Origin: an uncultured Burkholderiales bacterium
GTDB lineage: Bacteria; Pseudomonadota; Gammaproteobacteria; Burkholderiales; Burkholderiaceae_C
Direction of reading: 5' to 3'
Assembly (NCBI GenBank): GCA_903831655.1
Contig: CAIKYO010000183.1
Span: forward strand, 19 to 64,018
Length of the DNA: 64,000 bases
The notes under the pieces were generated by a model. That model was not told where the DNA came from and searched no databases. It was given only the letters and a program-made list of their open reading frames with translations. Below are positions 40,575-59,271 of the stretch, one piece after another. Within the stretch, counting starts at the first letter, position 1, and each line of letters opens with the position of its first letter. The translations under genes and the position numbers were made by a program.

Positions 40575-41060
40575 ATGAACAATCCAAAAATTAGACGCGT
40601 CGTCACAGGTCACGATGAGAACGGCAAAGCGGTTGTGAAAATCGATGAGATCTGTACCCATTTCAAAGAGGGCCGTCCCAACGGTTTTTCTTGCAACATT
40701 TGGACCACTGACACCGTGCCTGCAGACAACTGCTCCGATGTGGATGGGGGCAAGCGCGAGGGACGTTTCACAATGATTGAGAATGGCTCGGTCTTTCGAA
40801 TATTGGACTTCAAGCCCGGCGTTGCTTATCGCATGCACAGAACCGATTCAATTGACTACATTGTGGTGATGTCAGGAGAGATCGACATGGAACTCGATGA
40901 AGGTCACTCGGTCCACCTCAAAGCTGGGGATGTGATGGTGCAAAGAGGCACCATTCACAATTGGGTCAACAATGGGACCGAGACCTGCGTCATGGCGGTT
41001 ATTTTGATTCATGCCCACCCTGCACAAGCTGGTGGACAGGTGCTTCACGCCCAAGGCTAA
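40575..41060 (+). CDS. Cupin domain protein (paralog of 14934..15404)
   Basis: KIRRVVTGHD..GKAVV, HRTDSIDY, MVQRGTIHNW. Confidence 0.85.
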   Translation: MNNPKIRRVVTGHDENGKAVVKIDEICTHFKEGRPNGFSCNIWTTDTVPADNCSDVDGGKREGRFTMIENGSVFRILDFKPGVAYRMHRTDSIDYIVVMSGEIDMELDEGHSVHLKAGDVMVQRGTIHNWVNNGTETCVMAVILIHAHPAQAGGQVLHAQG

Positions 41061-41082
41061 GCGAGCAAGCCGTAGGCTGGAA

Positions 41083-42462: not shown

Positions 42463-42525
42463 GGATGAATGGAGGTGATGGATTTAAGGGGGTTGAGGCT
42501 TAAGAGTCAAAGGCGAATCAAGGGT

Positions 42526-44201: not shown

Positions 44202-44316
44202 AGCTTGGCTTGCATGCCTTTTTTATCTGAAAGCGTCATTTTCAAATTTTCTTCAATTTCTTTCATTTTTGGGTTGCAGTTTTTTTAACTTCTTTTAGAA
44301 TGGTTAATTAGTAAAC

Positions 44317-44340
44317 CGCTGTTTCACTGGTAAAACAGCG
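44317..44340. promoter_or_regulatory. Candidate operator of the catabolic operon (IclR-type)
   Basis: Perfect 8-bp inverted repeat cgctgttt-N8-aaacagcg, 14 nt before the first gene of an operon encoding an IclR regulator. Confidence 0.55.
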
Positions 44341-44354
44341 AATCTGGAGACTTT

Positions 44355-44699
44355 ATGAGTGCAGGTGAGCCCCAAAGTTCAAACTCTGAATGGCACGACG
44401 TGTGTGCCGAATCCGAATTGGATCCTGAGTTTCCCCTCAGCGTTGAGGTTGAGGGTGAGAAGGTCGGGGTCTTCAAAGTGGGGGATCAGGTCTATGCGCT
44501 TGAGGACATTTGTCCGCATGCCTATGCATTGCTCTCACAAGGCTTTCAAGAGAACGGACAAATTGAATGTCCACTGCACGGCGCGTTGTTTGACATAGCC
44601 ACGGGCATGAGTCTGACTGAGATTGGTCAACGCGATTTGACATGTCACAAGCTCAAAATTGAGAGCGGTCGTGTTTGGGTCAAGCTCCACGCCGCCTGA
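44355..44699 (+). CDS. Rieske-type ferredoxin of a ring-hydroxylating oxygenase
   Basis: CPH....L..G......IECPLHGALFDI.TG. Confidence 0.92.
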   Translation: MSAGEPQSSNSEWHDVCAESELDPEFPLSVEVEGEKVGVFKVGDQVYALEDICPHAYALLSQGFQENGQIECPLHGALFDIATGMSLTEIGQRDLTCHKLKIESGRVWVKLHAA

Positions 44700-44731
44700 G
44701 TTCCTCAAAGACCAACTCAATCAGGACCCCC

Positions 44732-45532
44732 ATGACACCCTCAACTCCAGTCTCTGTTCCTGCCATTGAGTTTGTCAATGTGCAAAAGAGGTTTTCCTCC
44801 AAAGCGGGGAATGTGACAGCTGTTCAAAACATCAACACTCAAATCCAAAGTGGTGAAGTGGTCTCCATCATTGGTCCCTCGGGTTGTGGAAAAAGCACCT
44901 TGCTCAACATGGGTTCAGGACTTGCCGCACCCACAAGTGGTGAGGTCTTTGTCGCGGGTGAGCGTGTGATGGGGCCCAACGCGCACGTTGCCTTTATGCT
45001 CCAAAAGGATCTCTTGATGCCTTGGAGAACGATTGCCCAAAACGTCGAATTTGGCCTTGAAATCAGAGGTGTTGCAGCCAAAGAGCGAGAGATCATTTCA
45101 ACCCAACTCTTGGCCCAATGCCACTTAAAAGGTTTTGAGGCTCACTACCCACACCAACTCTCGGGTGGGATGAGGCAGCGTGCCGCATTGGCGCGCACCT
45201 TGGCCATTGACCCCATTGTGCTTTTAATGGATGAGCCTTTTTCCGCCTTGGATGCACAGACCAAAATGATCTTGCAACAAGATTTGGCCACCACCATTCA
45301 TGCTCAAAACAAAACGGTGCTCTTCATCACACACGACTTGGCTGAGGCGGTTACGCTCTCGGATCGCATTTTGGTCATGAGCGAGAGACCTGGCACGATT
45401 GTCAACGAGATCATTGTGGAGTTACCTGCTCGCCACGATCCTTTGCAGCGCAGAAAGCATCCCGAGATGAACCACTACGTGGCCCTGTTGATGGATCTCT
45501 TGAAGTTGGATGCCAACAAAGAGTTGCATTGA
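44732..45532 (+). CDS. ABC transporter ATP-binding protein, NitT/TauT family
   Basis: GPSGCGKS, LSGGMRQR, LMDEPF, ITHD; start moved to MTPST. Confidence 0.95.
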   Translation: MTPSTPVSVPAIEFVNVQKRFSSKAGNVTAVQNINTQIQSGEVVSIIGPSGCGKSTLLNMGSGLAAPTSGEVFVAGERVMGPNAHVAFMLQKDLLMPWRTIAQNVEFGLEIRGVAAKEREIISTQLLAQCHLKGFEAHYPHQLSGGMRQRAALARTLAIDPIVLLMDEPFSALDAQTKMILQQDLATTIHAQNKTVLFITHDLAEAVTLSDRILVMSERPGTIVNEIIVELPARHDPLQRRKHPEMNHYVALLMDLLKLDANKELH

Positions 45533-45554
45533 TTGATTGATTGATTGATTGATT
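45531..45554. repeat. Tetranucleotide microsatellite (GATT)6
   Basis: gattgattgattgattgattgatt, overlapping the ATPase stop codon and upstream of the SBP start. Confidence 0.9.
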
Positions 45555-45573
45555 CTTTTTCACTTTACTTTAC

Positions 45574-46584
45574 TTGGAGCGCAACATGTTTAGAACCTCT
45601 TGTCCTGCTTTGGTATCGCGTGCTTTGGCAGCACTTCTCTTGAGCCTTGGTCTGGTGTCCGCAGCGAGAAGTGCTGAGCTCCAAGAAATCACTTACTTGC
45701 TTCCTGCTCCCAGCAATTTACCTGCATTTGGTCCTTGGATGATTGCACAGGCCAAGGGCTACTATGCCCAAGAGGGTTTGAGCGTTAAGTTCGTCACCGG
45801 TCGTGGCGGTGTGGATGTGGCCAAACAAGTCGGTGCGGGCAATGCTGTCATTGGAGGAGCCATTGGGGACACGCCCATCATTGCACGCGCACAAGGCATT
45901 CCCGTCAAAGCCGTTGCCGTTTTGGGCGCAGGTTCACTCATGCAACTCGTGAGCCACGAGGACGCTCACATTGAGAGTCCACGGGAATTAAAAGGCAAGA
46001 CCGTAACGACCATCGCCTACACCGATACCACCTATTACGCGTTGCTTGGCATGCTCTCCAAATCAGGTTTGACCAAAAACGACTTGGACATTCAAGCTGC
46101 AGGACCCGCAGGGGTTTGGCAACTCTTTGTGAGTAAAAAATCCACTGCCATGGCCTCTACACCAGACTGGACTGTGATGGCCATGGAGGCGGGTGCCAAG
46201 GTGAGCATCATCCCCTCTGATGTGTACTTCAAAAGCATGGCTCAAGCCATTTTGGTGTCCGATGAAACCATTCAAAAAAATCCTGAATTGGTTCGCAAAC
46301 TCGTTCGCGCAACCCTAAAAGGCATGAAAGACATCATGGCCAACCCCAAAGAAGCGGCCAAGTCATATGCCACTGTGGTCACCAATTACAAAGGGCACGA
46401 GGACAGCATTGAGAAGATGTTTGGCTTTTACAACCAATACGTCTACGCCAATCAAAAGGTCCCAGGCACGATGGATGAAAGTCGCTTGGGTGAGTTGCAA
46501 AAATTCTATGTCTCCAATGGCATCGTGCCCCAAGCCGTTCCTTTGAATGAGCTCTACACCAATCAATTTGTGAGCACCAAGTAA
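45574..46584 (+). CDS. ABC transporter substrate-binding protein (NMT1/THI5-like)
   Basis: KGYYAQEGL.V....G.GG......VGAG; signal peptide. Confidence 0.88.
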   Translation: MERNMFRTSCPALVSRALAALLLSLGLVSAARSAELQEITYLLPAPSNLPAFGPWMIAQAKGYYAQEGLSVKFVTGRGGVDVAKQVGAGNAVIGGAIGDTPIIARAQGIPVKAVAVLGAGSLMQLVSHEDAHIESPRELKGKTVTTIAYTDTTYYALLGMLSKSGLTKNDLDIQAAGPAGVWQLFVSKKSTAMASTPDWTVMAMEAGAKVSIIPSDVYFKSMAQAILVSDETIQKNPELVRKLVRATLKGMKDIMANPKEAAKSYATVVTNYKGHEDSIEKMFGFYNQYVYANQKVPGTMDESRLGELQKFYVSNGIVPQAVPLNELYTNQFVSTK

Positions 46585-46666
46585 GTCCCACTTTTTTTGT
46601 ATTGGGCAGTTCAATTGAGACTTTTCGATTGAACTGCTTTTCTCTCCCCAAGAACGCCACTCTTTC

Positions 46667-47455
46667 ATGAACTCAACTTCTCCCAAAGCCTTACAGACCC
46701 TTCTTTGGAGTGCTGTGGTGTTGATTGTCTTTTTGGCCCTTTGGCAATGGGGGCCTGGTGCTTTGGGTGTACCTTCCTTCATTTTGCCCAATTTCACCAA
46801 GGTGATCTCTGAGGGCGTCAGAATTTGGAGTGGCGAGCGCTTATTCTTCCACACCGCTGTGACGGCCCTTGAGGTGGGCGTGGGTTTTGTGCTGGGTGCC
46901 CTGTTGGGGGCGGTCATCGGTTATGCGTTGGGTGTTTCTCCCAGAGTAGAGGCCGTCTTGTCGCCTTATCTCTTGGCCCTACAAATCGCGCCCAAAGTGG
47001 CCTTTGCACCTTTGTTTGTGATGTGGCTGGGTTACACCATGTATCCCAAAATTTTGGTGGCCGTCTTGATCGTCTTCTTTCCAGTACTCATCAACGTCCT
47101 TCAAGCCATGAGAACGATGGATTTGGACATGATCAACCTGGCCAGATCTTTCTCAGCAAATCGCTGGCAGGTCTTTAGAAACGTTGAATTTCCAAGCACC
47201 TTGCCCGCCCTTTTCTCAGGCCTGAGAATTGCCAGTACCTTGGCCGTCATCGGAGTGGTGGTGGGTGAATTGGTGGGTGGCAACATGGGGCTTGGGTATT
47301 TGTTGGTTTTCTTTGAGGGCGAGGGCAACACGGCAGCCGTGTTTGTGGTGATCGCTTGGCTCACTGTGATTGGCATCGTGGCCTACTACGCAGTGGTTTA
47401 TGCGGAGAACAAAGTTCTTCATTATTTGCCTTCCATGGAGAGACGCAATGCTTGA
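46667..47455 (+). CDS. ABC transporter permease
   Basis: TM helices; PKVAFAPLF, VVGEL.GG..GLGYL. Confidence 0.9.
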   Translation: MNSTSPKALQTLLWSAVVLIVFLALWQWGPGALGVPSFILPNFTKVISEGVRIWSGERLFFHTAVTALEVGVGFVLGALLGAVIGYALGVSPRVEAVLSPYLLALQIAPKVAFAPLFVMWLGYTMYPKILVAVLIVFFPVLINVLQAMRTMDLDMINLARSFSANRWQVFRNVEFPSTLPALFSGLRIASTLAVIGVVVGELVGGNMGLGYLLVFFEGEGNTAAVFVVIAWLTVIGIVAYYAVVYAENKVLHYLPSMERRNA

Positions 47456-48227
47456 TTCAAGCCCCAAGGCCTTCATTGCCGAGCCCTCACTTTTGAGGGG
47501 CCATCGTGTCTTGATCACGGGTGCGGCGAGGGGACTGGGGGCTGAATTTGCAAAAGCCGTGATTGATAGCGGTGCACGGGTGGTCTTGAGCGATGTGCTG
47601 CTCGAGCAAGGACAAGAGACCGCTCGTTCTTTGGGTGAGCGAGCGCACTTTGTGCCTGTTGATCTTTTGAATTCGCAAAGTACTCAAGACATGGTGCAAG
47701 CTGCCGTGGATTGGCTGGGAGGCTTGGATGCGGTGGTGAACAATGCGGCCATCACCAATTCGGGTGGAGTGCCCATGCAAAATTTGAGTGAATCTGTGTG
47801 GGATGATGTCATGGCTGTGAACGTCAAGGCGCCTTGGATGGTGAGCAAATTTGCGCTCCCCCATTTGGAGAAGAGTCCCAACGCTCGCATTGTCAACTTG
47901 TCCTCCGATACCGCCCTTTGGGGGGCTCCCAACTTAATGGCCTATGTGGCCAGCAAGGGTGCCATCATCTCCATGACCCGCTCCATGGCGCGTGAGTTGG
48001 GCTCCAAAGGCATCACGGTCAACGCCATCGCGCCAGGCTTGACTTTGGTGGAGGCCACGCAATACGTGCCTCAACATCGACACGATCACTACATGAATGG
48101 ACGAGCCATTCCCAGAGCGCAGTACCCCCAAGATTTGGCTAGCACCGTTTTGTTTTTGCTAAGCCCTGCAAGTGGCTTTATCACCGGACAGGTCATCCCC
48201 GTCAACGGTGGTTTTGTGATGAATTGA
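47448..48227 (+). CDS. Short-chain dehydrogenase/reductase
   Basis: TGAARGLG, NNAA, YVASK, VNAIAPG; start moved to MLDSS. Confidence 0.92.
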   Translation: MLDSSPKAFIAEPSLLRGHRVLITGAARGLGAEFAKAVIDSGARVVLSDVLLEQGQETARSLGERAHFVPVDLLNSQSTQDMVQAAVDWLGGLDAVVNNAAITNSGGVPMQNLSESVWDDVMAVNVKAPWMVSKFALPHLEKSPNARIVNLSSDTALWGAPNLMAYVASKGAIISMTRSMARELGSKGITVNAIAPGLTLVEATQYVPQHRHDHYMNGRAIPRAQYPQDLASTVLFLLSPASGFITGQVIPVNGGFVMN

Positions 48228-48261
48228 TGTCCTTGCCTGAATTTTAGAAAGTGAACCCAAA

Positions 48262-48852
48262 ATGAACCACACTGCAGCCAATGAGCCCCACTTTAACGAG
48301 CACGGCCTCTTGGACCCCACCATTCCAAGTGAGAGGGACATTCAAGCCGGACTTTTAAAGCCCCAGGGGATGAGTTTCTCCGACTGGATGCTCTCCCGCG
48401 TTGCCACCTATGCCACACGTCGCTATGACTGGGACGCATTGAAGTTCCAAGCTGATTTTGATCCCAAGTACGGTCGCGCCCAAATGCGCTACGTTGGTAC
48501 AGGGGGCACGGGTGTGGCCAAGGATGTGAACACGGTGCCTGCTGGGCACTTTACCTTCTCAACGATGGTGATCCCCGCAGGGCATGAGGGTCCCTCTCAC
48601 ATTCATTGGGATGTGGAGGAGATTTTCTTTTTGATTCGAGGACGCATGAAAGTCGTTTGCGAAAAGGACGGCGAGAGATGGGAGCACGTGCTCTCGGATC
48701 GTGATTTGATCTCTGTGCCACCAGGGGTCTACCGTGAGGAGATCAACATTGGAGACGAGGACGCGCTCATGTGCGTGATGCTGGGCTCACCCAAGCCCAT
48801 CACCCCGGTCTATCCCCCCAACAGTCCTTTGGCAAAGATCAAAAGAACTTGA
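48262..48852 (+). CDS. Cupin domain protein
   Basis: GPSHIHWDVEEIFF and PPGVYR.E cupin metal motifs. Confidence 0.82.
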   Translation: MNHTAANEPHFNEHGLLDPTIPSERDIQAGLLKPQGMSFSDWMLSRVATYATRRYDWDALKFQADFDPKYGRAQMRYVGTGGTGVAKDVNTVPAGHFTFSTMVIPAGHEGPSHIHWDVEEIFFLIRGRMKVVCEKDGERWEHVLSDRDLISVPPGVYREEINIGDEDALMCVMLGSPKPITPVYPPNSPLAKIKRT

Positions 48853-48880
48853 TCTGAGCCCTTGGTCCACCCAACGATCC

Positions 48881-49858
48881 ATGAACCCCTCTCAACCCTT
48901 AAGTGCTGCCATGATGGATGCCTCTACAAGTCCTTCCGCCTTGATTCAAGCCATTGAAGGTTTCAAGGCACGGGTGTGCACCTACGCCCATGGGGGTGAG
49001 GAGCGGCAAATTTCTTACCGTTCCAGTTTACAAACAAGTGACGGTGTAGGCGAGGAAAAAGGTGTGACCCATGTTCTTTTGCATGGCATTGGTTCTGGCA
49101 GTCAAAGCTGGTTGTATCAACTCCAATTTGCGAGAGCAAATGGGGACAAAAAAGCAGGTGTTCAGGGCTTGGGTGAGGTTTTGGCTTGGGACGCACCAGG
49201 ATACGCGCTCAGCACGCCCTTGCACAATTTGGCACCCACACCACAAGAATACGCACAACAGTTTTGGGCTTGGCTGGATGCGTTTGAAATTCAAAGTGGA
49301 GTGCAGTCCAATGAGCTCACGTTGGTGGGACATTCACTGGGCTGCCTAATGGCCACCGCCGCCCAAAAATTGAGGCCTAATCGTGTGAAGCGATTGGTCT
49401 TGCTCTCGCCAGCCATAGGCTACGCAGCAGCAGCAGAGGAGGTGAGAGTCGCCAAACGAGAGGATCGGCTCAAAAACTTGAACCTCTTGGGCCCCAAGGG
49501 CATGGCCGAAAAGAGGGGGCACGCCATGCTCCACGCACCTGTCTCAGAGGAATTGTTGGACTATGTGAAATTCATCATGGCTCAAGTCATCCCCCATGGT
49601 TACCAGCAAGCCACCCACATGCTCTCCAATGCGGATTTGCTCCAGGAGCTTGAATCGGTGGGTTGTGCTTTGAGTGTTGCCTCTGGGGACCAAGATGTGA
49701 TCACCCCACTTGGATCTTGTCAAAGCGTTGCGGCCAAGAAAAATGTTCCCCACCAAGTTCTCATAGGTGCTGGTCATGCCTGTCATTTACAAACCCCTGA
49801 TGTGGTGACACAGTTGATCTTCGAGTCTGAGCAAAGGAGTGAACAAATCCATGGTTGA
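48881..49858 (+). CDS. Alpha/beta fold hydrolase
   Basis: LLHGIGS, WDAPGY, GHSLG nucleophile, GDQD, GAGH. Confidence 0.88.
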   Translation: MNPSQPLSAAMMDASTSPSALIQAIEGFKARVCTYAHGGEERQISYRSSLQTSDGVGEEKGVTHVLLHGIGSGSQSWLYQLQFARANGDKKAGVQGLGEVLAWDAPGYALSTPLHNLAPTPQEYAQQFWAWLDAFEIQSGVQSNELTLVGHSLGCLMATAAQKLRPNRVKRLVLLSPAIGYAAAAEEVRVAKREDRLKNLNLLGPKGMAEKRGHAMLHAPVSEELLDYVKFIMAQVIPHGYQQATHMLSNADLLQELESVGCALSVASGDQDVITPLGSCQSVAAKKNVPHQVLIGAGHACHLQTPDVVTQLIFESEQRSEQIHG

Positions 49859-50693
49859 GGACAAGGAAAATCGCTACACGGTCCCTGGTCTTCAAAGGGG
49901 CTTGGAGATCCTTGGGGCTTTCTCACAAGACAACAAGCCTTTGAGTGGAGCTGAACTCGCTCGTCGGCTTCAATTGCCCAGAGCCTCAGTGTTTCGATTG
50001 CTTCAAACGCTTGAACTGATGGGTTTTGTCGAGCGCATAGGCGAGTCTTCCCAATACAAGTTAGGACTTGCTGTGTTGCGACTGGGTTTTGGGTACTTGG
50101 CCTCTCTTGAGATCACCCATTTGGGTCAGCCCATCTTGGAGAGATTGAGTGCAAGCACTGGTTTATCCAGTCACTTGGTCGTGCGGGACCACACCCAAGT
50201 GGTGATCGTGGCCAAAGTGTTGGGCCGTACGTCTCTCTTTAATTCCCTACAAGTGGGAGCTCGTTTGCCCGCACACGCCACCGTCATCGGCCGAGTGTTG
50301 CTGAGTGATTTCACAAGCGATCAACTGAGCGCGTTATTCACGAATGCGCCACTCCAAGCCTATACCGAACACACGCCGACCAGCATCTCTCGTTTGGCCG
50401 AGTTGATTGCTCAGCTCAAAACCCAAGGTCACGGAATCAGTCAAGGTGGATTTGAGATAGGGATCTCCACCATCGCTGCACCCGTGCGGGATCAAACGGG
50501 TCAGGTCGTGGCCGCTCTCAGTATCACCGTGCCCTCTCAGCAAATTGAACCCAGCAACTTGAATCCTTTATTAAATGAGCTCAAGCGCTGTGCGGCTGAG
50601 TTGTCCATATCCATGGGCTACCGCGAGCCTTTCATGGCCTCGAGTCGTGCACTCGAGAGACGTGAGTCACCGGTGCTCAGTGCGGTTGATTAA
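49839..50693 (+). CDS. IclR family transcriptional regulator
   Basis: VPGLQRGL.IL N-terminal HTH; GARLPAHAT..GRVLL effector domain. Confidence 0.92.
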   Translation: MNKSMVEDKENRYTVPGLQRGLEILGAFSQDNKPLSGAELARRLQLPRASVFRLLQTLELMGFVERIGESSQYKLGLAVLRLGFGYLASLEITHLGQPILERLSASTGLSSHLVVRDHTQVVIVAKVLGRTSLFNSLQVGARLPAHATVIGRVLLSDFTSDQLSALFTNAPLQAYTEHTPTSISRLAELIAQLKTQGHGISQGGFEIGISTIAAPVRDQTGQVVAALSITVPSQQIEPSNLNPLLNELKRCAAELSISMGYREPFMASSRALERRESPVLSAVD

Positions 50694-50720
50694 AAATATT
50701 TTTACAAAAAAAACACAGAC

Positions 50721-52430
50721 ATGAATTCATCCCTTCACCCTGAGCCTCAAAACATCACTGTGGGGCAATTGATCGCCCGCTACTTGGAGGCTTGTGGCGT
50801 GAGGGCAGCCTTTGGCGTGGTCTCTATTCACAATTTGCCTATTTTGGATGCATTCTTTCAACGCAAAGACCTCCCCAGTGGCATTCGTTTTGTGCCCTCA
50901 AGAGGAGAGGCGGGTGCTTGCAACATGGCAGACGCTTATGCGCGTGTGAGTCAAACTTTGGGCGTTTTTGCGACCAGTACCGGTACAGGTGCTGGCAACG
51001 CTGCAGGCGCTTTGGTTGAAGCCATGACTGCAGGCACGCCCATGATTCATCTCACAGGGCAAATTGACTCTGATTTTGTGGACAAAGATTTCGGATTTAT
51101 CCACGAAGCCCCTGATCAATTGGGCATGCTTAAATCGGTGAGCAAGGCTGCGTATCGCATCCGAACCGCCCAGAGTGCACTGTCCATTTTGAAGGAGGCC
51201 ACTCGAGTGGCTTTCACCGCACCCTGTGGTCCGGTGAGCATTGAGATTCCCATTGATGTACAAAAGTCGCTCCTCCAAGCGCCCCATGTGAGCGATTTGC
51301 TCCCCCCTCATGCTGCTGTGGTGACTCCTAACGAGGAGGTGCTTAACGCCATGGCCGAACGACTCTTGCAGGCCAAGCGTCCTGTGTTGTGGCTCGGCGG
51401 AGGCGCAAGGGGTGCCTCAAAAGCGGTCATGCGTTTTGTAAAAATGGGTTGGACCATTGTGACATCTGTTCAAGGCCGAGGTGTCGTGAGCGAGGACACC
51501 CCAGGTGTCTTGGGGTCCTTCAATTCTCAGCGCCCCATTGAAGCCTTCTATGAAAGCTGTGATGCATTTGTAGCGGTTGGCACTCGCCTCAGATCCAACG
51601 AGACATTGCGCTACCAATTGAAATTGCCCAAGGCTCACTTTCGAATCGATGCAAACGCTTTGGCCCAGGGCCGTGGATATGCCAGTGAGCTCTTTTTGCA
51701 TGGAGATGCAACACTCAGTTTGAACGCGTTGGCAGATCGATTGGAGCACCGTTCGCAAATCGATCCCCAATTGATCTTGGACGCTCAAGCGGCCAAGGCA
51801 AGTGCCATCGCTTTGATGAACCATGACTTGGGGCCTTATCACTTGCTAAAGGATGAGGTGAGTCGTGTTTTTAAGGACGATTTGTTGTGGGTAAGGGATA
51901 TCACACTCTCCAATAGCATGTGGGGTAACCGAGCGCCGTTTTTCACGCAACCCACACAAGGTGTGCATGCGCTTGGAGGTGGCATTGGACAAGGGCTTAG
52001 CATGTCCATTGGTGCAGAGGTGGCCAATCAAACCCACCAATTAAAAGCCAATACCTTGGCTTTGATGGGGGATGGTGGGTTCATGCTCAATGTGGGCGAG
52101 TTGGCCTGCGCCGTTCAAGAGCGTGCCAACGTGGTGATGCTGGTCATGAACGATGGTGGGTATGGCGTCATCAAAAACATTCAAGACGATTTGTACGGTT
52201 CACGCCACGGTTATGTGGATTTGGTCAACCCCAGTTTTGAGGTCTTGTGCGCGAGTTTGGGAGTGAGTTACTTGTCCATGAAGGACGCAACTTCCTGTGC
52301 CGCAGTGCTCCATGAGGCCAAGGCTTTGCAGCAAAAGGGTGTTGGTCCTGTGGTGATCGAAGTGGATATGAAAACTTGGGGGCCCTTTAATACCAAGTTT
52401 GCGGGTCCCCCTTTGAAGAAGGCGCACTGA
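50721..52430 (+). CDS. Thiamine pyrophosphate-dependent enzyme (decarboxylase/ALS-like)
   Basis: RGEAGA..MADAYAR catalytic Glu; GDGGF...NDGGYG TPP motif. Confidence 0.9.
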   Translation: MNSSLHPEPQNITVGQLIARYLEACGVRAAFGVVSIHNLPILDAFFQRKDLPSGIRFVPSRGEAGACNMADAYARVSQTLGVFATSTGTGAGNAAGALVEAMTAGTPMIHLTGQIDSDFVDKDFGFIHEAPDQLGMLKSVSKAAYRIRTAQSALSILKEATRVAFTAPCGPVSIEIPIDVQKSLLQAPHVSDLLPPHAAVVTPNEEVLNAMAERLLQAKRPVLWLGGGARGASKAVMRFVKMGWTIVTSVQGRGVVSEDTPGVLGSFNSQRPIEAFYESCDAFVAVGTRLRSNETLRYQLKLPKAHFRIDANALAQGRGYASELFLHGDATLSLNALADRLEHRSQIDPQLILDAQAAKASAIALMNHDLGPYHLLKDEVSRVFKDDLLWVRDITLSNSMWGNRAPFFTQPTQGVHALGGGIGQGLSMSIGAEVANQTHQLKANTLALMGDGGFMLNVGELACAVQERANVVMLVMNDGGYGVIKNIQDDLYGSRHGYVDLVNPSFEVLCASLGVSYLSMKDATSCAAVLHEAKALQQKGVGPVVIEVDMKTWGPFNTKFAGPPLKKAH

Positions 52431-52432
52431 AA

Positions 52433-53251
52433 ATGATGCAACTCACCTTGCTTGGGTTTGGAGCCATTGCCAAAGAGGTGCTCGAACGTTTGAAGCCCGA
52501 GACGGGTATTCGCCTGTCCCAAGTGGTGGTCAACCCGGGCCGTGAGAGCGCAGTCAGGGAGCAATTGGGGCAAGGGGTGAAGGTGGGCTCCATCATGGAT
52601 CACGATTTGATGCACCAGTGGCAGGCTCAAGGTGATCAGGTGATGGTGCTCGAGTGTGCCTCACATTCTGCACTCTTGACGCACGTTCTTGCCGCCTTGA
52701 GGGAAGGCTTTGAATGTGCGATTCTCTCCATTGGTGCGCTCTCTGAGGAGGGCTTGCCCGAGCAATTAGATGAAGCCGCTCGAGCGGGGCAAACCCAGGT
52801 GCACTTGTTGAGTGGAGCTATAGGTGGGATTGATGCATTGGCCTCAGCGAAGTTGATGGGCTTGGAGGAGGTGATCTACACCGGACGAAAGCCTCCCTTG
52901 GGCTTTAAGGGCACTCCAGCAGAGCAACTGGTGGAGTTGGAAACACTCAAGCACGCTCATGTGCTCTTGAGTGGCACGGCACGCCAAGCTTCAAGACTGT
53001 ATCCCAAAAATGCCAATGTGGCAGCCACGGTTTCGCTGGCGGGTCTGGGCTTGGACGCCACAAAAGTGCAATTGATTGCAGACCCCAGCATCAGCCAAAA
53101 TATTCATGAAATCAAGGCCAAAGGCGCCTTTGGTGAGTTTCACATGACCTTGATGGGCAACCCTTTGCCAAACAATCCCAAAACCTCAGCGCTCACAGTG
53201 CTCAGTGCGGTGCGTTTTTTGTTGAATCAAGTTCGTCCAATGACCCTTTGA
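52433..53251 (+). CDS. nadX: L-aspartate dehydrogenase (NadX family)
   Basis: G.GAI, ECASH, SIGAL, SGAIGGID.L, YP.NANVAAT, NPKTS.LT. Confidence 0.9.
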   Translation: MMQLTLLGFGAIAKEVLERLKPETGIRLSQVVVNPGRESAVREQLGQGVKVGSIMDHDLMHQWQAQGDQVMVLECASHSALLTHVLAALREGFECAILSIGALSEEGLPEQLDEAARAGQTQVHLLSGAIGGIDALASAKLMGLEEVIYTGRKPPLGFKGTPAEQLVELETLKHAHVLLSGTARQASRLYPKNANVAATVSLAGLGLDATKVQLIADPSISQNIHEIKAKGAFGEFHMTLMGNPLPNNPKTSALTVLSAVRFLLNQVRPMTL

Positions 53252-53273
53252 CGCAAGAATTTAAAAATCCATT

Positions 53274-54299
53274 TTGATACCAGCACAACACATGACACAT
53301 CCAAGCGTTCAACCTCCCCAAAGCGGTATCGAAGGAATCGATGCCATTACATTCAGCGCAAGCGAAGGCCCTGAGGCTTGGGCCCGAGTGAACGCGTTCT
53401 TTAAAGACTTTGGATTGAAGGCGCTCTCCAATACGCCCAATCACCAACTCTTTGAAACGCTCAACGGCTCTTTGGTGAAAGTGGTTTTACCTGGAGACAG
53501 CTCCTATCCAGTTGCCATTGAGGAGGGGCCAACGCTCAGAGAGGTGACCTGGGGGCTGCGCGATCTTGGGACCTTGGATCGATTGGCCGATGCATTAAAG
53601 GGTCAGCGTGGTTTTGAAGATTTACGCTCTACCCACGCCCAAATCAAGGCCATCGATCCCCATGGGCTGGTTTTGGTGTTTCAGTTGAGTCGCAAAAAAG
53701 ATCTGAGGATTGTGGGGTCTCCCACCAATCCTTACGGGGCCGTTGCACGGGTCAATCAAGCCTCTCCCGTCTACGAGCGTGCCACTCCCATTGAGATTGG
53801 ACACGTGGTGCTCTTTACGGACCAGTTGAAAGACGCGCAAACTTACTACGAGTCCTTGGGTTTCGTGGTCTCAGATGAATACCCCAACCGGGGTGTTTTC
53901 CTCAGGTGTGGTGAGCAAGCTGGCCACCACGATTTGTTTTTATTGCAAGTGCCCAACAAGAAACCAGGATTGAACCACGTGGCGTTCACGGTCAGAGACA
54001 TTCACGAGGTCTTTGGAGGTGGGTTGCACATGAGCCGTTGCGGCTGGAAAACACAACTGGGCCCTGGTCGCCATCCCGTGTCATCCGCTTTCTTTTGGTA
54101 TTTCGAGAGTCCATGTGGAGGGCTGGTTGAGTACAACGCCGATGAGGACTATTTAACGGCCGAGTGGCACGCAAGAAGTCTTGATCCCAGTCCTTCCATG
54201 TTTGCGGAGTGGGCCATTGAGGGAGGGTTGGACGGGCACACCCGTCGTCAACCTTTGGCGGAGAAGCCATCGGGCTTTTTGACGGAGAAAAAAGGATGA
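53274..54299 (+). CDS. VOC-family type I extradiol ring-cleavage dioxygenase
   Basis: GHVV, HHDL, NHVAF, GRH...Y...P.G..VEY (His/His/Glu metal ligands). Confidence 0.8.
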   Translation: MIPAQHMTHPSVQPPQSGIEGIDAITFSASEGPEAWARVNAFFKDFGLKALSNTPNHQLFETLNGSLVKVVLPGDSSYPVAIEEGPTLREVTWGLRDLGTLDRLADALKGQRGFEDLRSTHAQIKAIDPHGLVLVFQLSRKKDLRIVGSPTNPYGAVARVNQASPVYERATPIEIGHVVLFTDQLKDAQTYYESLGFVVSDEYPNRGVFLRCGEQAGHHDLFLLQVPNKKPGLNHVAFTVRDIHEVFGGGLHMSRCGWKTQLGPGRHPVSSAFFWYFESPCGGLVEYNADEDYLTAEWHARSLDPSPSMFAEWAIEGGLDGHTRRQPLAEKPSGFLTEKKG

Positions 54300-55315
54300 T
54301 CTCTAGACTGCATTTGCGCGTCAGGGCGCTGATTACATTTGCTTTTGTTTGGGGTCTGGTGATCTTGGGACTGCCCGCTTTTGCCCAAAGCACCAGTCAA
54401 GTGTCCAATGCTTGGGCAAGCAACTCAGAAGGCTTTCATGTTGTAGCGCCTTTCCCACCTGGTGGTCCCATCGATTTGCTGGCTCGTTTGTTGTCCAACG
54501 ATTTGGCTGAGCGTTACAAAGTCACCTCGGTGGTTGACAACGTCCCAGGGGGTGCTGGCAACATTGGGATGGATCGTGTGAAAAAAGCCAAACCAGATGG
54601 GCACACGCTGTTGGTAATTCCTGCAGGTAACTTGACCATCAACCCCAGTTTGATGCCCGATTTCCCCTTCAACATTGAGCGTGACTTCACACCCATCACC
54701 CTCTTGGCCAAAGCCCCCAATGTGCTTGTGGCGTCTCCCTCATTGCATGTCAAAGGGGTCTCCGAGTTGGTGGCTTTTGCCAAAGCCCAAAAATCACCCT
54801 TGGCCTTCGCCTCGCCTGGGGTGGGCAGTGGCCTTCACTTGGCGGGGGAGCTCTTTAAACAACAAGCTGGCATAGAGCTCATGCACGTTCCCTACAAAGG
54901 AACTGCTCCTGCATTGAATGATGTTTTGGGGGGACAGGTGCCATTGATGTTTAGCAATCTACCTGGCGCTTTGCCTTTCATTAAAAACGGCAAATTGGTG
55001 GCCATTGGGCTTACCGACTCTGTTCGTTCTTTGTCTGCACCTGAAATTGCAACGCTGCAAGAGCAAGGCTTGAGCGGTGTGGTCGTTAATTCTTGGTATG
55101 GCCTTCTCGCGCCAATGGGCACGCCGGTGAGCGTTGTTGAGGCTTTGGCCAAGGATGCTCAGGAGATGCTTGGCAAAGCACAAACGCAGGAACAACTCAA
55201 AGCGCAGGGCTTAACAGAATCAAAGATGAGTCCGCAAGAGTTTGCGCAACTCATTAAAAGCGAGACTGCTCAATGGGCCAAGATCGTCAAAGCCAAAAAC
55301 ATCGTGATGGAGTGA
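54296..55315 (+). CDS. Bug/TctC substrate-binding protein
   Basis: PFPPGGPID, PDGHTLL, HVPYKGTAP. Confidence 0.92.
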   Translation: MISRLHLRVRALITFAFVWGLVILGLPAFAQSTSQVSNAWASNSEGFHVVAPFPPGGPIDLLARLLSNDLAERYKVTSVVDNVPGGAGNIGMDRVKKAKPDGHTLLVIPAGNLTINPSLMPDFPFNIERDFTPITLLAKAPNVLVASPSLHVKGVSELVAFAKAQKSPLAFASPGVGSGLHLAGELFKQQAGIELMHVPYKGTAPALNDVLGGQVPLMFSNLPGALPFIKNGKLVAIGLTDSVRSLSAPEIATLQEQGLSGVVVNSWYGLLAPMGTPVSVVEALAKDAQEMLGKAQTQEQLKAQGLTESKMSPQEFAQLIKSETAQWAKIVKAKNIVME

Positions 55316-55319
55316 GTTC

Positions 55320-55658
55320 ATGGAGCACACCAACCCAACTGGACAAGAGATGGTGATGCTCACCATCGTTCTCAAGCACGCTCAGGGTTTGGATTTGGAG
55401 GCCATCCAGAGCAAACTCAAAAGTAAAGAGTGGTGGAGCCGTTTCCCCATTGAGGGCACACAGCTCGTGTCTTGGGTCGTGGCCATGGGGTTGGGTCAAA
55501 TTGTGGTGCTCAAAACGCCTGCTCATTTGGTGCCAGCCATCAACTTGGAGCTCGAGCGCAGTGCTTGGGGTGTTTTTAACACCGAGTGTTATGTGAGCTA
55601 CGACTTCGTACCCGTTAGAGAGCGCATCATAGAGCGGGTGAAGGCGGGGGGGCAGTGA
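55320..55658 (+). CDS. Conserved hypothetical protein of Rieske oxygenase clusters
   Basis: MLTIVLKH.Q, FP.EG..LVSW.V.MGLGQIV.L, ERSAWG.F.TE.Y..YDF. Confidence 0.7.
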   Translation: MEHTNPTGQEMVMLTIVLKHAQGLDLEAIQSKLKSKEWWSRFPIEGTQLVSWVVAMGLGQIVVLKTPAHLVPAINLELERSAWGVFNTECYVSYDFVPVRERIIERVKAGGQ

Positions 55659-55728
55659 TGCACAGTTTCTCAAGCGAATGGGTCTTGGAAGTTTTAATCA
55701 TTCAAAGCGTATTTATTTGGAGTCAGCC

Positions 55729-55992
55729 ATGAGTCAATTTACACAACCTTCCTTTGGGCATTTTCCCCAAAAAGAGATCGACAGGTATTTGGATCCACAT
55801 CAAGCCAGAAGGCGAGCGCCCACAAGTTATGAGGACTTGTTGGGGGATGCGATTGAGCGAGCGTTTGGACTGGGGCATTGGGATTTGGAGGGTTTGGTTG
55901 CACGCTTGAACCAAACCGGACCCATGGGACCCAATGGTGAGAGATGGACCCCCGAGAGCTTTTCAAACGTGATCAAAACTTTGGGAGATTGA
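55729..55992 (+). CDS. Recombinase-like helix-turn-helix small protein
   Basis: YEDLLGDAIERAF.....L..L...LN..G...P.G..WT.ESF; start moved to MSQFT (GGAG upstream); abuts the oxygenase gene. Confidence 0.7.
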   Translation: MSQFTQPSFGHFPQKEIDRYLDPHQARRRAPTSYEDLLGDAIERAFGLGHWDLEGLVARLNQTGPMGPNGERWTPESFSNVIKTLGD

Positions 55993-55993
55993 G

Positions 55994-57028
55994 ATGAGCA
56001 CTGCACACACCATTCACTTGTCTGAGCAAAGCCCAAACCTCACTCCACAGGGGCTCATGGAGAGAGGTCTCTTTGATTTGTGGTTTCCCATTTGTCCATC
56101 CGACTTTGTCAAAGAAAAGCCCATCTCGCTTTGGCGACTGGGCTACAAGTTGGCCCTTTGGAGAGATGCACAAAACAAGGTTCATGCCTTGGAGGATCAT
56201 TGTCCTCACCGAGGAGCGCCTTTGTCGATGGGGGTTAACTTGGGGGACCGCTTGGCTTGCCCCTACCATGGGATTGAGGTTCGATGCGATGGTTTGGTCA
56301 CCAAAGTTCCAGCCAGTCCGGGTTGCACTTTGGAGGGCACGCACGCCACCCGCTCCTTTCACATTCAAGAGGTGCACGGTGCGATATGGCTCTACAACAG
56401 CAAACTGCCAGTAGAGAAGGCTCCCCCACTGGTGCTCCCCGAGGAGCTCACCAACCCTGAGTGGAGCAATTTCCTGTGTTACACAGAGTGGAGAGGCGAC
56501 TACCGCTACGTCATAGACAATGTGATGGACCCCATGCACGGTACTTTTGTCCACAAGCAATCGCATTCGATGTCTGAGGGGGACATCAGCGCTAAATTTA
56601 AACTGAGGAAAACCGAGCACGGATTCATGTTTGAAAAGGATGGACAGCGTGATGTGAATTTTGACTGGACCGAGTTTGGAGACACCGGTGTGCATTGGCT
56701 TCGCTTGGCCATTCCATATCCCAAAACGGGAGGTCCTGGTGGCAGCTTTGGCATCATTGGAAGTTACACCCCGATTACTCCCAATTTGTCTGCGGTCTTT
56801 CACTGGAGGTGCAGACGGGTGCAGGGTTGGGAGAGAGATGTTTGGCGCTTTCTCTACAAAAACAGGCTTGAAGCGCGTCACTGGGTGGTGCTTGAGCAAG
56901 ACCGCGTGATGCTTGAAAACATGGAGCCCAATGCCAACGAGAGAGAGCACTTGTACGAGCATGATGTGGGGCTTTCCAGGCTTCGCAAAATCATGCTCTC
57001 GACCGCTCAAAAGCAGTTGGGTGCTTGA
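55994..57028 (+). CDS. Rieske non-heme iron oxygenase, alpha subunit (VanA/phthalate dioxygenase-like)
   Basis: CPHR...CPYHG Rieske motif; DNVMDPMHGTFVH and EQD mononuclear iron ligands. Confidence 0.93.
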   Translation: MSTAHTIHLSEQSPNLTPQGLMERGLFDLWFPICPSDFVKEKPISLWRLGYKLALWRDAQNKVHALEDHCPHRGAPLSMGVNLGDRLACPYHGIEVRCDGLVTKVPASPGCTLEGTHATRSFHIQEVHGAIWLYNSKLPVEKAPPLVLPEELTNPEWSNFLCYTEWRGDYRYVIDNVMDPMHGTFVHKQSHSMSEGDISAKFKLRKTEHGFMFEKDGQRDVNFDWTEFGDTGVHWLRLAIPYPKTGGPGGSFGIIGSYTPITPNLSAVFHWRCRRVQGWERDVWRFLYKNRLEARHWVVLEQDRVMLENMEPNANEREHLYEHDVGLSRLRKIMLSTAQKQLGA

Positions 57029-57462
57029 TGCAAATCAAGCGCTTGGTCAATGAACTCGATCCTTGGAGCGAGCACATGACTTGGACCTCTGCTTGGCAAA
57101 TGGGCCAAGAGGTGGTGCTATCGGGTATGACGGCCAATCCCAACGCAAAGCCACCCCTTCTTGAGGGGGAGGAGCAAGGGGCAAGAGGACTCGACATGTA
57201 CTCTCAAACCATGACTGTGTTTGAGAAAATCGAGTCGTGGCTCAAAGTCGCAGGGGGTCACCGCTACAACTTGGTCAAGACGGTCATCTACGTGACCGAT
57301 ATAGCCTTGAAGGCGGAGGTTGGGCGGGCCAGGAGGGATTTCTTTGCAGGGAGCTTTCCCTTGTCCACTTTGGTGGAGGTCTCGGGTTTGGTTTTTCCTC
57401 AACTGTTGGTTGAAATCGATGCTTGGGCACGGTTGGACGTAGATATTCGACAAGCCAGCTGA
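57025..57462 (+). CDS. RidA/YjgF family protein
   Basis: V.LSGMTA, LVKTVIYVTD, R..FF....P.STLVEV..L....LLVEIDA. Confidence 0.85.
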   Translation: MMQIKRLVNELDPWSEHMTWTSAWQMGQEVVLSGMTANPNAKPPLLEGEEQGARGLDMYSQTMTVFEKIESWLKVAGGHRYNLVKTVIYVTDIALKAEVGRARRDFFAGSFPLSTLVEVSGLVFPQLLVEIDAWARLDVDIRQAS

Positions 57463-57503
57463 GCCTGAGCGGTTGTTAGATCGATTCTTAACAGGAGCAT
57501 TTC

Positions 57504-58280
57504 TTGGATTTGGGACTTAAAAACAAACGCGCCTTGGTGTGTGGTGCCTCCGCTGGTTTGGGCCTGGCTTGTGCTGAGGCTTTGGCCCGAGAGGGTGTTC
57601 ACATTTTGAGTGTGGCCAGAAGAGAGGAGCTCCTCAAGACAACTTGTGCGAGTCTTTTGGAATTGGGAGCTGCATCGGCCACATGGTGTTCAGCCGACAT
57701 CACCACTGAGGAGGGGCGCAAAGCGGTCTTTCAAATGCAAAGTGATTTTGACATCGTCATCACCAACGCGGGTGGACCCATGCAAGGGGATTTTAGGGGC
57801 TTCAAGAGAGAGGATTGGCTCAAAGCCATGGATGCCAATATGCTCACCCCCATTGAGATCACCAAGAGAGTTTTGGATGGCATGATGCAAAGGGGATTTG
57901 GTCGCATCGTGCACATCACATCCAGTGGCGTCAAACAGGCGGTGCCTGGTTTGGATTTGAGCAACGGAGTGCGCGCAGGTCTCACAGGCTTCATGGCTGG
58001 TTTGGCGCGCAGCGCGGTTCAAAGTGGAGTCACCATCAACCAACTGCTTCCAGGGACTTTTGACACCGATCGACTGGCGAGTAACTTCAAGGCACAAAGC
58101 CAAAGAACAGGCATTGACGCCCAGACTCTATTGACTCAACGACTTCAAAAGCACCCCGCTAAGCGACTGGGTCGCCCTGAGGAACTGGGTGCCATGTGTG
58201 CTTTTTTGTGCAGCCAATATGCTGGCTACATCAACGGACAAAATATACTCATGGACGGGGGCTCTTATTTAGGGGTTTAG
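57504..58280 (+). CDS. Short-chain dehydrogenase/reductase (atypical; LSNGVR replaces YxxxK)
   Basis: CGASAGLG, TNAGGP, TINQLLPG; TTG start after AGGAG. Confidence 0.88.
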   Translation: MDLGLKNKRALVCGASAGLGLACAEALAREGVHILSVARREELLKTTCASLLELGAASATWCSADITTEEGRKAVFQMQSDFDIVITNAGGPMQGDFRGFKREDWLKAMDANMLTPIEITKRVLDGMMQRGFGRIVHITSSGVKQAVPGLDLSNGVRAGLTGFMAGLARSAVQSGVTINQLLPGTFDTDRLASNFKAQSQRTGIDAQTLLTQRLQKHPAKRLGRPEELGAMCAFLCSQYAGYINGQNILMDGGSYLGV

Positions 58281-58337
58281 AGCTTTCTGCATTTTCTAAG
58301 AGTCTGTCGAGTAAGAGAGCACAACAGGGATTCAATC

Positions 58338-59246
58338 ATGACTTATTGCCCAGAGGGTTTCAAAATTGAGCGCCAGCGCACCCAAGGCGTCTGTGCTGAG
58401 GAGCCCATTGAGATCGAATACTGCATCGGGGGCAGGGGACCTGCGCTTTTACTCTTGCACGGATTTCCCCAGACAAAAGCCATCTGGCACAAGGTGGCAG
58501 GGCCTTTGTCTGAGCACTTCACACTGGTGATGCCTGATCTGCGGGGCTACGGAGCCTCCTCCAAACCCAAGGGTTCAATGGATCATGCAAGCTATTCAAA
58601 GCGAGCCATGGCTCAAGACCAAGTTGATTTGATGAGGGGGCTAGGATTTGATCGATTCGGACTGGTTGGGCATGACCGAGGAGCAAGGGTCTCTCACCGT
58701 TTGGCCAAAGACCACGCTCAGGTGGTGAGTCGCATGATGCTGCTCGATATCTCTCCAACACTCACCATGTACGACAACACCAGTCAAGCGTTTGCAACGA
58801 GTTACTGGCACTGGTTTTTTTTGATTCAGCGTGAACCCGTACCCGAGACCTTGATCGGATCGAATCCAGAATTTTGGATCAAGCAGCACATGGGTTCACG
58901 TTTTGCGGGTTTGGATATTTTTACGCCTGAGGTGTGGCAAGACTATTTGAAAGGTGCCAAGGACCCAGCGTGTGTTCACGCCATGTGCGAGGACTACCGT
59001 GCATCAGCAAGCATCGATTTAGAGCATGACAGGGAGGACTTGCGTGGGGGTGTGAAGCTTCAAATGCCCCTTCACGTTCATTGGGGCTCTAAGGGAGTGA
59101 TCGAGCGATGCTTTTCCCCACTTGAGGATTGGCGTGCGTGTTCAAACGCCGTGGTCACGGGCAATGCACTCGAATGTGGTCACTACATTCCCGAGGAAGT
59201 GCCACTTGATTTGGTGAAGTCGATTTTGACGTTCTTTGGCAGTTAA
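58338..59246 (+). CDS. Haloacetate/fluoroacetate dehalogenase-like alpha/beta hydrolase
   Basis: HGFPQ, GHDRGARV (Asp nucleophile plus two Arg), YWHWFF, CEDYRA, CGHYIPEE. Confidence 0.85.
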   Translation: MTYCPEGFKIERQRTQGVCAEEPIEIEYCIGGRGPALLLLHGFPQTKAIWHKVAGPLSEHFTLVMPDLRGYGASSKPKGSMDHASYSKRAMAQDQVDLMRGLGFDRFGLVGHDRGARVSHRLAKDHAQVVSRMMLLDISPTLTMYDNTSQAFATSYWHWFFLIQREPVPETLIGSNPEFWIKQHMGSRFAGLDIFTPEVWQDYLKGAKDPACVHAMCEDYRASASIDLEHDREDLRGGVKLQMPLHVHWGSKGVIERCFSPLEDWRACSNAVVTGNALECGHYIPEEVPLDLVKSILTFFGS

Positions 59247-59271
59247 AGCGCTTGGAGCCAGCGTTTTTTTT
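59245..59271. terminator. Probable terminator between convergent genes
   Basis: aaagcgct/agcgtttt stem (one G-U) followed by a T run. Confidence 0.5.

Follow-up and report, generated by a model that had tools for sequence, protein, structure and literature searches.

A type B, aldehyde dehydrogenase-less variant of a functionally unassigned oxygenase gene cluster in an uncultured Burkholderiales bacterium

Contig CAIKYO010000183.1 of an uncultured Burkholderiales bacterium (GenBank assembly GCA_903831655.1) carries a long run of genes, among them those for a predicted Rieske oxygenase, an extradiol dioxygenase, and an aspartate dehydrogenase, that is related to the uncharacterised PA3498-PA3514 cluster of Pseudomonas aeruginosa PAO1. 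The stretch analysed here, referred to as the window, comprises 64,000 nucleotides and is almost the entire contig, one of 463 in a 3.5-Mb assembly. Open reading frame listing and Pfam and NCBIfam scans place 18 co-directional genes on the + strand between 44355 and 59246 (g01 to g18, in order), and neighbouring genes either overlap slightly or are separated by no more than 82 nt. Every domain family named in a first-pass annotation of this DNA was recovered at its position on the + strand by Pfam and NCBIfam; the number of genes, given there as 16, rises to 17 that are co-conserved plus an 18th, for a co-directional alpha/beta hydrolase at 58338-59246. The locus is a new variant of a functionally unassigned cluster family: it is of the form termed type B below, lacks an aldehyde dehydrogenase (ALDH), and has gained a second hydrolase.

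We predict that positions 44355-59246 form one catabolic operon controlled by an IclR-family regulator. The sole long non-coding gap ahead of the run (44202-44354, + strand) presumably holds its promoter and operator, and no consensus sigma-70 site was found in this interval upstream of g01. At the other end lies a terminator-like hairpin followed by a T-run (59245-59267, + strand), which, together with the co-directional g18, puts the end of the operon about 1 kb past the end coordinate first proposed. The next gene after the hairpin, of the DsbD_2 family (59270-60088), is on the opposite strand, and the surroundings are chromosomal, with ccoGPO downstream.

The oxygenase component (g15, 55994-57028), orthologous to PA3500, is an alpha-only Rieske non-haem iron oxygenase (Pfam Rieske and VanA_C). 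Its Rieske motif (CPHRG at residue 70, CPYHG at residue 89) and its mononuclear-iron motif DxxxDxxHxxxxH (DNVMDPMHGTFVH at residue 175) are both intact, and it shares 71% identity with the P. aeruginosa protein; the ratio of nonsynonymous to synonymous substitution rates (dN/dS) is 0.026. Two small proteins had been noted ahead of it, and both are present. One, g14 (55678-55992, true start probably 55729), is an HTH_62 domain protein (Pfam PF20552) whose gene lies directly upstream of that for the oxygenase in all loci mapped; the other, g13, has a ferredoxin-like fold and is described below. At least eight database clusters contain an oxygenase orthologue that carries HTH_62 at its N-terminus as a fusion, and these fusions, which are recurrent and look real, suggest that g14 is a partner of the Rieske oxygenase. 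The gene that heads the run (g01, 44355-44699), annotated at first simply as a ferredoxin, does encode one, more exactly a Rieske-type [2Fe-2S] ferredoxin of 114 amino acids (Pfam Rieske/Rieske_2) with CPH and CPLH motifs at residues 53 and 72; the nearest NCBIfam model, AndAb, scores below its cut-off. Ferredoxins of this type head the cluster in loci that have no reductase gene.

Ring cleavage is represented by g11 (53274-54299), a two-domain type I extradiol dioxygenase of the VOC superfamily (Pfam Glyoxalase). Its residues H177, H235, and E286 align with the metal ligands H155, H214, and E267 of homoprotocatechuate 2,3-dioxygenase, and H219, H267, and Y276 with the catalytic residues H200, H248, and Y257 of that enzyme, a pattern from which we predict a genuine type I extradiol catechol dioxygenase. 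The short-chain dehydrogenase/reductase (SDR) g05, or SDR1 (Pfam adh_short), is an orthologue of the PA3511-type SDR, is a core gene in all loci, and shares 56% identity with the P. aeruginosa SDR that adjoins the permease; it spans 47448-48227, 47448 being a more likely start than the 47370 given originally. We propose that it acts as a diol dehydrogenase. Of all genes in the cluster the best conserved is g06 (48262-48852; 196 amino acids; Pfam Cupin_2; HxH...E motif at residue 113), which encodes a cupin metalloprotein and has 66-81% identity across loci and a dN/dS of 0.011. Its product matches the quercetinase QueD weakly (E 8e-4), and we propose that it is a dioxygenase that opens a second ring, or else a decarboxylase. 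Alpha/beta hydrolase 1 (g07, 48881-49858; Pfam Abhydrolase_6), with a GHSLG nucleophile elbow, is also a core gene but the least conserved one (32-49% identity across loci). Its nearest NCBIfam models are of the AcoC/PcaD type, PcaD being an enol-lactonase, and HsaD is reached only at E 2e-6. Pfam scans found no hydratase or aldolase domain in the run. The meta-cleavage logic proposed in the first-pass annotation is thus borne out for the Rieske oxygenase, the SDR, and the extradiol dioxygenase with its full set of ligands and catalytic residues, but not for the later steps, where the hydrolase is PcaD-like and a hydratase and aldolase are missing.

Two further core enzymes set the cluster apart, and to our knowledge no characterised pathway joins an aspartate dehydrogenase (AspDH) and a thiamine diphosphate (ThDP) enzyme to ring cleavage in this way. 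The ThDP-dependent enzyme g09 (50721-52430) is the orthologue of PA3506, with 54% identity to the P. aeruginosa protein; it belongs to NCBIfam NF005470 (761 bits, cut-off 495), the next nearest model being 5-guanidino-2-oxopentanoate decarboxylase, and is proposed to be a 2-oxo-acid decarboxylase. The adjacent g10 (52433-53251) belongs to the L-aspartate dehydrogenase (NadX) family (NCBIfam NF009827, 325 bits, cut-off 226) and is the orthologue of PA3505, which is annotated as an aspartate dehydrogenase in PAO1; a PA3505 orthologue has been reported to be a true L-aspartate dehydrogenase. The canonical 'NIH' histidine of g10 aligns with those of the T. maritima and A. fulgidus enzymes, and the gene is single-copy in the genome. 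We propose that its product handles an imino or amino dicarboxylate fragment.

Uptake would be provided by a NitT/TauT-type ABC importer. It consists of an ATPase (g02, 44675-45532; Pfam ABC_tran; nearest NCBIfam models SaoA and TauB), for which an ATG at 44732 may be the true start and which is 70-72% identical to its counterparts in Rhodoferax and Polaromonas loci; an NMT1/THI5-like periplasmic substrate-binding protein of the SsuA family (g03, 45574-46584; Pfam NMT1; NCBIfam SsuA_fam below cut-off), for which a structure search found no close ligand-bound solved structure; and a permease (g04, 46667-47455; Pfam BPD_transp_1) with 72% identity to the P. aeruginosa permease and a dN/dS of 0.036. 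An accessory TctC/Bug-family periplasmic receptor (g12, 54296-55315; Pfam TctC) occurs in only part of the loci; the genome holds one TctA gene, elsewhere. Among solved structures, g12 comes closest to the terephthalate-binding protein 8hka (234 bits) and Bug27 (207 bits), and this nearness to binders of aromatic acids supports an aromatic acid as the substrate. The regulator g08 (49839-50693, likely true start 49851; Pfam HTH_IclR and IclR_C) scores 192 bits, below the cut-off, against the NCBIfam PcaR/PobR subfamily. Uptake systems have been swapped between lineages: in 19 Cupriavidus and Ralstonia loci (for example L069, 11164-13644) an MFS transporter of the Sugar_tr type follows the reductase gene, and in Comamonadaceae and Pseudomonas the ABC importer takes its place.

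Four further genes are accessory or specific to a subset of loci. The conserved 112-amino-acid protein g13 (55320-55658) belongs to no Pfam family; its AlphaFold2 model (pLDDT 74) predicts a beta-alpha-beta-beta-alpha-beta arrangement of the ferredoxin-like alpha+beta type, and Foldseek gave only weak matches, to methylmuconolactone isomerase 2ifx, ClcF, and Dabb proteins. The RidA/YjgF-family protein g16 (57025-57462; Pfam Ribonuc_L-PSP) is the orthologue of PA3499 and matches PDB entry 2IG8, 'hypothetical protein PA3499', at E 3e-36. Both g13 and RidA are found in 16 loci and neither in 55, with no discordant locus, although these counts are phylogenetically non-independent; the two genes lie two genes apart despite this perfect co-occurrence. 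They look like an optional two-protein accessory module, and such optionality fits the acceleration of a reaction that also proceeds spontaneously. SDR2 (g17, 57504-58280; Pfam adh_short) is specific to type B, where it stands in place of the PA3507-type SDR (SDRb), to which it has just 25% identity; within type B loci the figure is 56-66%. The two are mutually exclusive (SDR2 in 20 loci, SDRb in 43). Alpha/beta hydrolase 2 (g18, 58338-59246; GHDRG; Pfam Abhydrolase_1) is a lineage-specific addition with a dN/dS of 0.10, present solely in the window and in the sister lineage (loci L123-L126). Its NCBIfam matches are weak, the nearest including BchO-related hydrolases and haloalkane dehalogenases, and it possibly, but not necessarily, makes up for the missing ALDH.

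The resemblance to the PA3505 region of P. aeruginosa, which the first-pass annotation had pointed out, was confirmed by the gene order of a P. aeruginosa contig (permease, SDR, cupin, hydrolase, IclR, SDR, ThDP enzyme, AspDH, ALDH, VOC protein, small protein, HTH_62, Rieske oxygenase, RidA, reductase, ending with nth and rnf) and by the match of g16 to the PA3499 structure 2IG8. With PA3498-PA3514 the window has in common the ABC importer, SDR, cupin, hydrolase, IclR, ThDP enzyme, AspDH, VOC protein, small protein, HTH_62, Rieske oxygenase, and RidA, in one and the same order and at 41-74% identity. It differs in lacking the PA3507-type SDR, the PA3504 ALDH, and the PA3498 reductase, and in adding a Rieske ferredoxin, a TctC receptor, a different SDR, and a second hydrolase.

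The cluster is not confined to these two organisms. A scan with the VOC protein yielded 58 loci in Rhodoferax, Polaromonas, other Comamonadaceae, Cupriavidus, and Ralstonia, and mapping by tblastn showed that the gene order of the window recurs in the first three of these groups, while in Cupriavidus and Ralstonia it is reshuffled (hydrolase, HTH_62, oxygenase, SDR1, cupin, IclR, SDRb, ThDP enzyme, AspDH, ALDH, VOC protein, reductase). Twenty further genomes of the family show the same two layouts, and the gene set, conserved in many Proteobacteria, is also carried by Burkholderia, Variovorax, and Hydrogenophaga. An invariant core, made up of the oxygenase with HTH_62, SDR1, the cupin, the hydrolase, IclR, the ThDP enzyme, AspDH, and the VOC protein, stays together despite this rearrangement in about 80 loci of Comamonadaceae, Cupriavidus, Ralstonia, and Pseudomonas. 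Co-conservation, on which the original proposal of a single pathway depended, was found. The cluster occurs in five of 41 close relatives and in 46 of 401 genomes of the family (30 of 166 genera), and in none of 400 genomes in an even class-wide sample. Such a scattered, accessory occurrence is what catabolic islands typically show.

A tree built from the concatenated ThDP enzyme, AspDH, VOC protein, oxygenase, and cupin falls into two clades. Type A, with the PA3507-type SDR and an FNR/Fer2 reductase, comprises 43 loci in Pseudomonas, Cupriavidus, and some Comamonadaceae. Type B, without this SDR and reductase and with SDR2, comprises 20 loci, and its clusters begin with a Rieske ferredoxin gene in every locus that extends far enough; the window belongs to type B, in the form found in Comamonadaceae. 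One member of the genus (L144, G014:C2:36000-55999) has the cluster in two divergent halves, VOC-HTH_62-oxygenase-reductase and SDR2-ALDH-AspDH-ThDP-IclR-hydrolase-cupin-SDR1-ABC, and thereby mixes type A and type B features, with reductase and SDR2 together. In P. aeruginosa draft GCA_002156655.1 (L073, 4523-6958 and 10001-11299) ThDP::AspDH and Rieske::RidA are called as fusions; these are probably artefacts of assembly or gene calling, and no ThDP fusion was present among the 120 best ThDP homologues.

The ALDH gene, the PA3504 orthologue, lies between the AspDH and VOC genes in 71 of 77 comparison loci. In the window this junction is reduced to 22 nt (53252-53273), and the closest ALDH that the genome offers, on another contig, reaches just 33% identity. 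The gene is missing elsewhere just in the sister lineage (L123-L126), in a locus of the same genus (L145), and in a contig from an uncultured Burkholderiales bacterium (L072), and according to the tree the gene was lost independently at least twice, and probably three times, in each case within type B. Metagenomic contigs of the sister lineage, whose oxygenase is 95% identical, have the identical ALDH-less layout of 18 genes beside ccoGPO. Against this lineage all 18 genes show dN/dS values of 0.01-0.16 at a dS of 0.7-1.2, matching the flanking ccoG and ccoP, and all 18 are under purifying selection. Recent decay as the cause of the ALDH loss is rejected, since the layout is common to the sister lineage at a dS of about 0.9 and these dN/dS values. 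Recurrence and selection together place the gene run, as judged from these comparisons, far above chance.

An enzyme annotated as NadX could be expected to supply the synthesis of nicotinamide adenine dinucleotide (NAD). In this genus nadB is absent from 25 of 25 genomes, the best 'nadB' match in the genome studied here being SdhA; by comparison, a true NadB (at least 600 bits) was found in 10 of 16 genomes from other families of the order. The nadA gene is absent from all 24 other genomes of the genus, including the cluster-bearing G007 and G014, and in the source assembly it is represented by just two fragments, at contig ends (C325:1691-2026 and C157:4-387). With nadB missing from the genus, nadA missing from its other members, and g10 situated in a catabolic operon, g10 is probably not there for NAD synthesis, a role we reject for the genus, and the conservation of its position within the operon suggests a catabolic one. 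A precedent exists in human ASPDH, which reduces 2-aminomuconate, a ring-fission enamine (bioRxiv 10.64898/2026.06.05.730449), and which shows that an AspDH fold can act downstream of a dioxygenase; g10 keeps the AspDH histidine in the prokaryotic position, whereas in the human reductase it is described as shifted. The proposal of a nitrogen-containing substrate, already made in the first-pass annotation, gains from both the improbable role in NAD synthesis and the enamine precedent, although nitrogen in the substrate is still something that we infer.

Several observations accompany these results. The gene content of the genus suggests dependence on NAD salvage. The source assembly, at 3.5 Mb, is larger than is typical of the genus (2.3-2.7 Mb); the bin may be mixed, or the lineage may have regained nadA. 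Distant AspDH paralogues, 31-35% identical, occur in five other members of the genus (G003:C74, G012:C224, G013:C10, G020:C90, and G007:C15; loci L133-L138). ABC ATPase genes adjoin the paralogue in three of these five, and none is accompanied by nadA or by the catabolic cluster; the contexts are unrelated, and the idea that these are trimmed versions of the cluster was rejected. Upstream of the operon in the window, at 39313-43542, the + strand encodes a class-V aminotransferase together with a small cupin, and the - strand an MmgE/PrpD-family protein and a TctC receptor that belongs to it. They amount to small, unrelated catabolic units, and their adjacency to the cluster is not conserved in other loci.

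Parts of the cluster recall known systems. Like carbazole (car) and phthalate-type pathways, it combines an alpha3-type oxygenase that has no beta subunit with a Rieske ferredoxin and with meta-cleavage of a catechol, but g15 scores just 45-66 bits against CarAa and phthalate dioxygenase, the hydrolase is of another type, hydratase and aldolase are absent, and there are extra ThDP, AspDH, and cupin steps. As in 2-aminomuconate processing (AmnD/NbaF; human ASPDH), RidA and an AspDH-fold enzyme are paired with a ring-cleaving dioxygenase; here, however, RidA is optional and g10 has its histidine in the prokaryotic position. The ThDP enzyme resembles that of the arginine transaminase module AruI/KauB in being 2-oxo-acid-decarboxylase-like and in having an ALDH two genes downstream (in 71 of 77 loci), but it belongs to a different equivalog family (NF005470), its partner is a dehydrogenase instead of a transaminase, and the ALDH is absent in the window. 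Full-text literature searches gave no substrate assignment for a PA3498-PA3514-type cluster, in agreement with its initial description as an orphan pathway.

We suggest that PA3498-PA3514-type operons break down an N-heteroaromatic carboxylate of the quinoline or pyridine type, and we put the probability of this explanation as a whole, the single IclR-controlled transcription unit included, at roughly 70%. The order of the steps is one that we infer. The NitT/TauT-type importer and the TphC/Bug27-like TctC receptor would bring in an aromatic carboxylic acid, whose carbocyclic ring would be attacked by the alpha-only oxygenase g15 with g14, electrons arriving through g01 from a reductase encoded elsewhere. 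SDR1 would rearomatise the product to a catechol, and g11 would open the catechol ring in extradiol fashion. The resulting 2-oxo-acid side chain would be decarboxylated by g09, with ALDH acting next in most organisms, along with SDRb or SDR2. The cupin g06 and hydrolase g07 could then dismantle the remaining nitrogen-containing ring, and AspDH g10 would process the freed iminoaspartate-like fragment, an imino or amino dicarboxylate, while RidA and g13 would speed imine or enamine turnover. The copy in the window would work without an aldehyde dehydrogenase and a reductase of the cluster's own. Some Cupriavidus loci have a neighbourhood that bears on the substrate: in L041 (16753-17676), L068 (18034-20322), and about six others, genes for subunits of a molybdenum hydroxylase of the xanthine dehydrogenase family (Fer2_2, MoCoBD) follow shortly after the cluster, from which another IclR gene and a TctC gene separate them. 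Molybdenum hydroxylases of this family typically hydroxylate N-heterocycles, and these neighbours count toward an N-heterocyclic substrate.

A number of points weigh against this interpretation. The nearest solved relatives of g15 (SxtT/SxtDIOX, DdmC, and KshA, at just 65-76 bits) are hydroxylases and demethylases, so that cis-dihydroxylation, and with it the diol-dehydrogenase role of SDR1, is not assured. The cluster has no reductase gene, and the single Reductase_C-type gene in the genome (C196:3620-4837) is in a housekeeping context, between argH-like and hemC-like genes; a PA3498-like reductase homologue on contig C267 is 37.5% identical. Hydrolase g07, to judge from its nearest models, is not of the meta-cleavage type. 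Repeated loss of ALDH implies that a simple scheme of decarboxylase followed by ALDH is not obligatory, and the missing ALDH and reductase also bear on the earlier suggestion that the ring-opened product is decarboxylated and deaminated. The closest solved relative of g12, 8hka, binds a nitrogen-free dicarboxylate. Finally, tryptophan 2,3-dioxygenase is absent from the genome and was never found near the cluster in 21 cluster-bearing genomes, which leaves it without a tie to the kynurenine pathway.

Some of the same evidence would suit a different substrate. With the oxygenase and extradiol logic unchanged, the compound could be a nitrogen-free aromatic acid, such as a methoxylated or dicarboxylated benzoate, with AspDH, RidA, and the ThDP enzyme processing a 2-oxo-dicarboxylate such as oxaloacetate or carrying out a reductive amination. 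The terephthalate-binding relative of the TctC receptor, the O-demethylase and hydroxylase types nearest to the oxygenase, the PcaR/PobR leaning of the IclR regulator, and the dispensability of RidA in most loci all fit. We nevertheless consider this unlikely: AspDH is core in about 80 loci, the other members of this genus have no de novo NAD pathway that it could supply, a nitrogen-free substrate gives little reason for a dedicated amino-acid dehydrogenase, and the molybdenum hydroxylase neighbours in Cupriavidus point to N-heterocycles.

Less probable still, and by a clear step, is an amino-aromatic substrate of the aminophenol or aminobenzoate type, from which the intact extradiol enzyme would generate a 2-aminomuconate-like enamine to be reduced by AspDH or deaminated by RidA. 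RidA-family 2-aminomuconate deaminases (AmnD/NbaF) are established in 2-aminophenol and 2-nitrobenzoate pathways, and the human 2-aminomuconate reductase offers a parallel for the AspDH fold, but the histidine of g10 occupies the prokaryotic and not the shifted human position, a PA3505 orthologue has been reported as a true L-aspartate dehydrogenase, and the cupin and ThDP enzyme would be left without an obvious role. That the run is instead two unrelated adjoining modules (ABC-SDR-cupin-hydrolase-IclR-ThDP-AspDH and VOC-Rieske), with AspDH serving NAD biosynthesis, is very improbable: the halves are divergent in L144 and the source genome has two nadA fragments and no nadB, yet the halves travel together in about 80 loci, the reshuffled Cupriavidus layout included, G007 and G014 have AspDH without nadA, and AspDH lies within the IclR-regulated catabolic operon.

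Within the preferred reading, degradation of an N-heteroaromatic carboxylate, kynurenate or xanthurenate is our best single guess at the substrate, a tentative one. The classical kynurenate pathway of the 1960s (KEGG map00380) runs through kynurenate 7,8-hydroxylase, a dihydrodiol dehydrogenase, and 7,8-dihydroxykynurenate 8,8a-dioxygenase to picolinate derivatives, and is known to us only as enzyme activities. The enzyme classes that it needs are present in the cluster: an oxygenase, a diol dehydrogenase, an extradiol dioxygenase, 2-oxo-acid decarboxylation, and a nitrogen-releasing opening of the pyridone. Literature searches found no genes or reference sequences for these activities. The copy in the window differs in lacking the ALDH that the side-chain step would need, and kynurenine-pathway genes are not linked to it. 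Two reports are circumstantial for kynurenate: Acinetobacter baumannii is reported to grow on it (PMC10732645), and freshwater algae (Chlamydomonas) excrete it (PMC10805672). It is conceivable, though doubtful, that the cluster family, of which the present operon is a trimmed freshwater form, supplies the genes so far lacking for the bacterial kynurenate/xanthurenate ('quinoline') pathway, with algal kynurenate as the substrate in lakes.

If this were true, the cluster would contain three activities that are unprecedented: opening of a 4-hydroxy-2-pyridone ring by a small Fe(II) cupin, release of the carbon skeleton by a PcaD-like hydrolase, and catabolic use of an AspDH on an iminoaspartate-type fragment, in which RidA and a new protein of ferredoxin fold would be optional helpers. 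The repeated loss of ALDH would then mark an alternative fate of the side-chain aldehyde. The window offers two natural experiments, an operon that is under selection without ALDH and reductase, and an AspDH from a genus that, this assembly apart, lacks quinolinate synthase. Solving the cluster would give a function to about 15 genes now annotated as 'hypothetical' or 'probable' in model organisms, would explain the occurrence of 'NadX' outside NAD synthesis in mesophilic bacteria, and would possibly close a 60-year gap in tryptophan catabolism.

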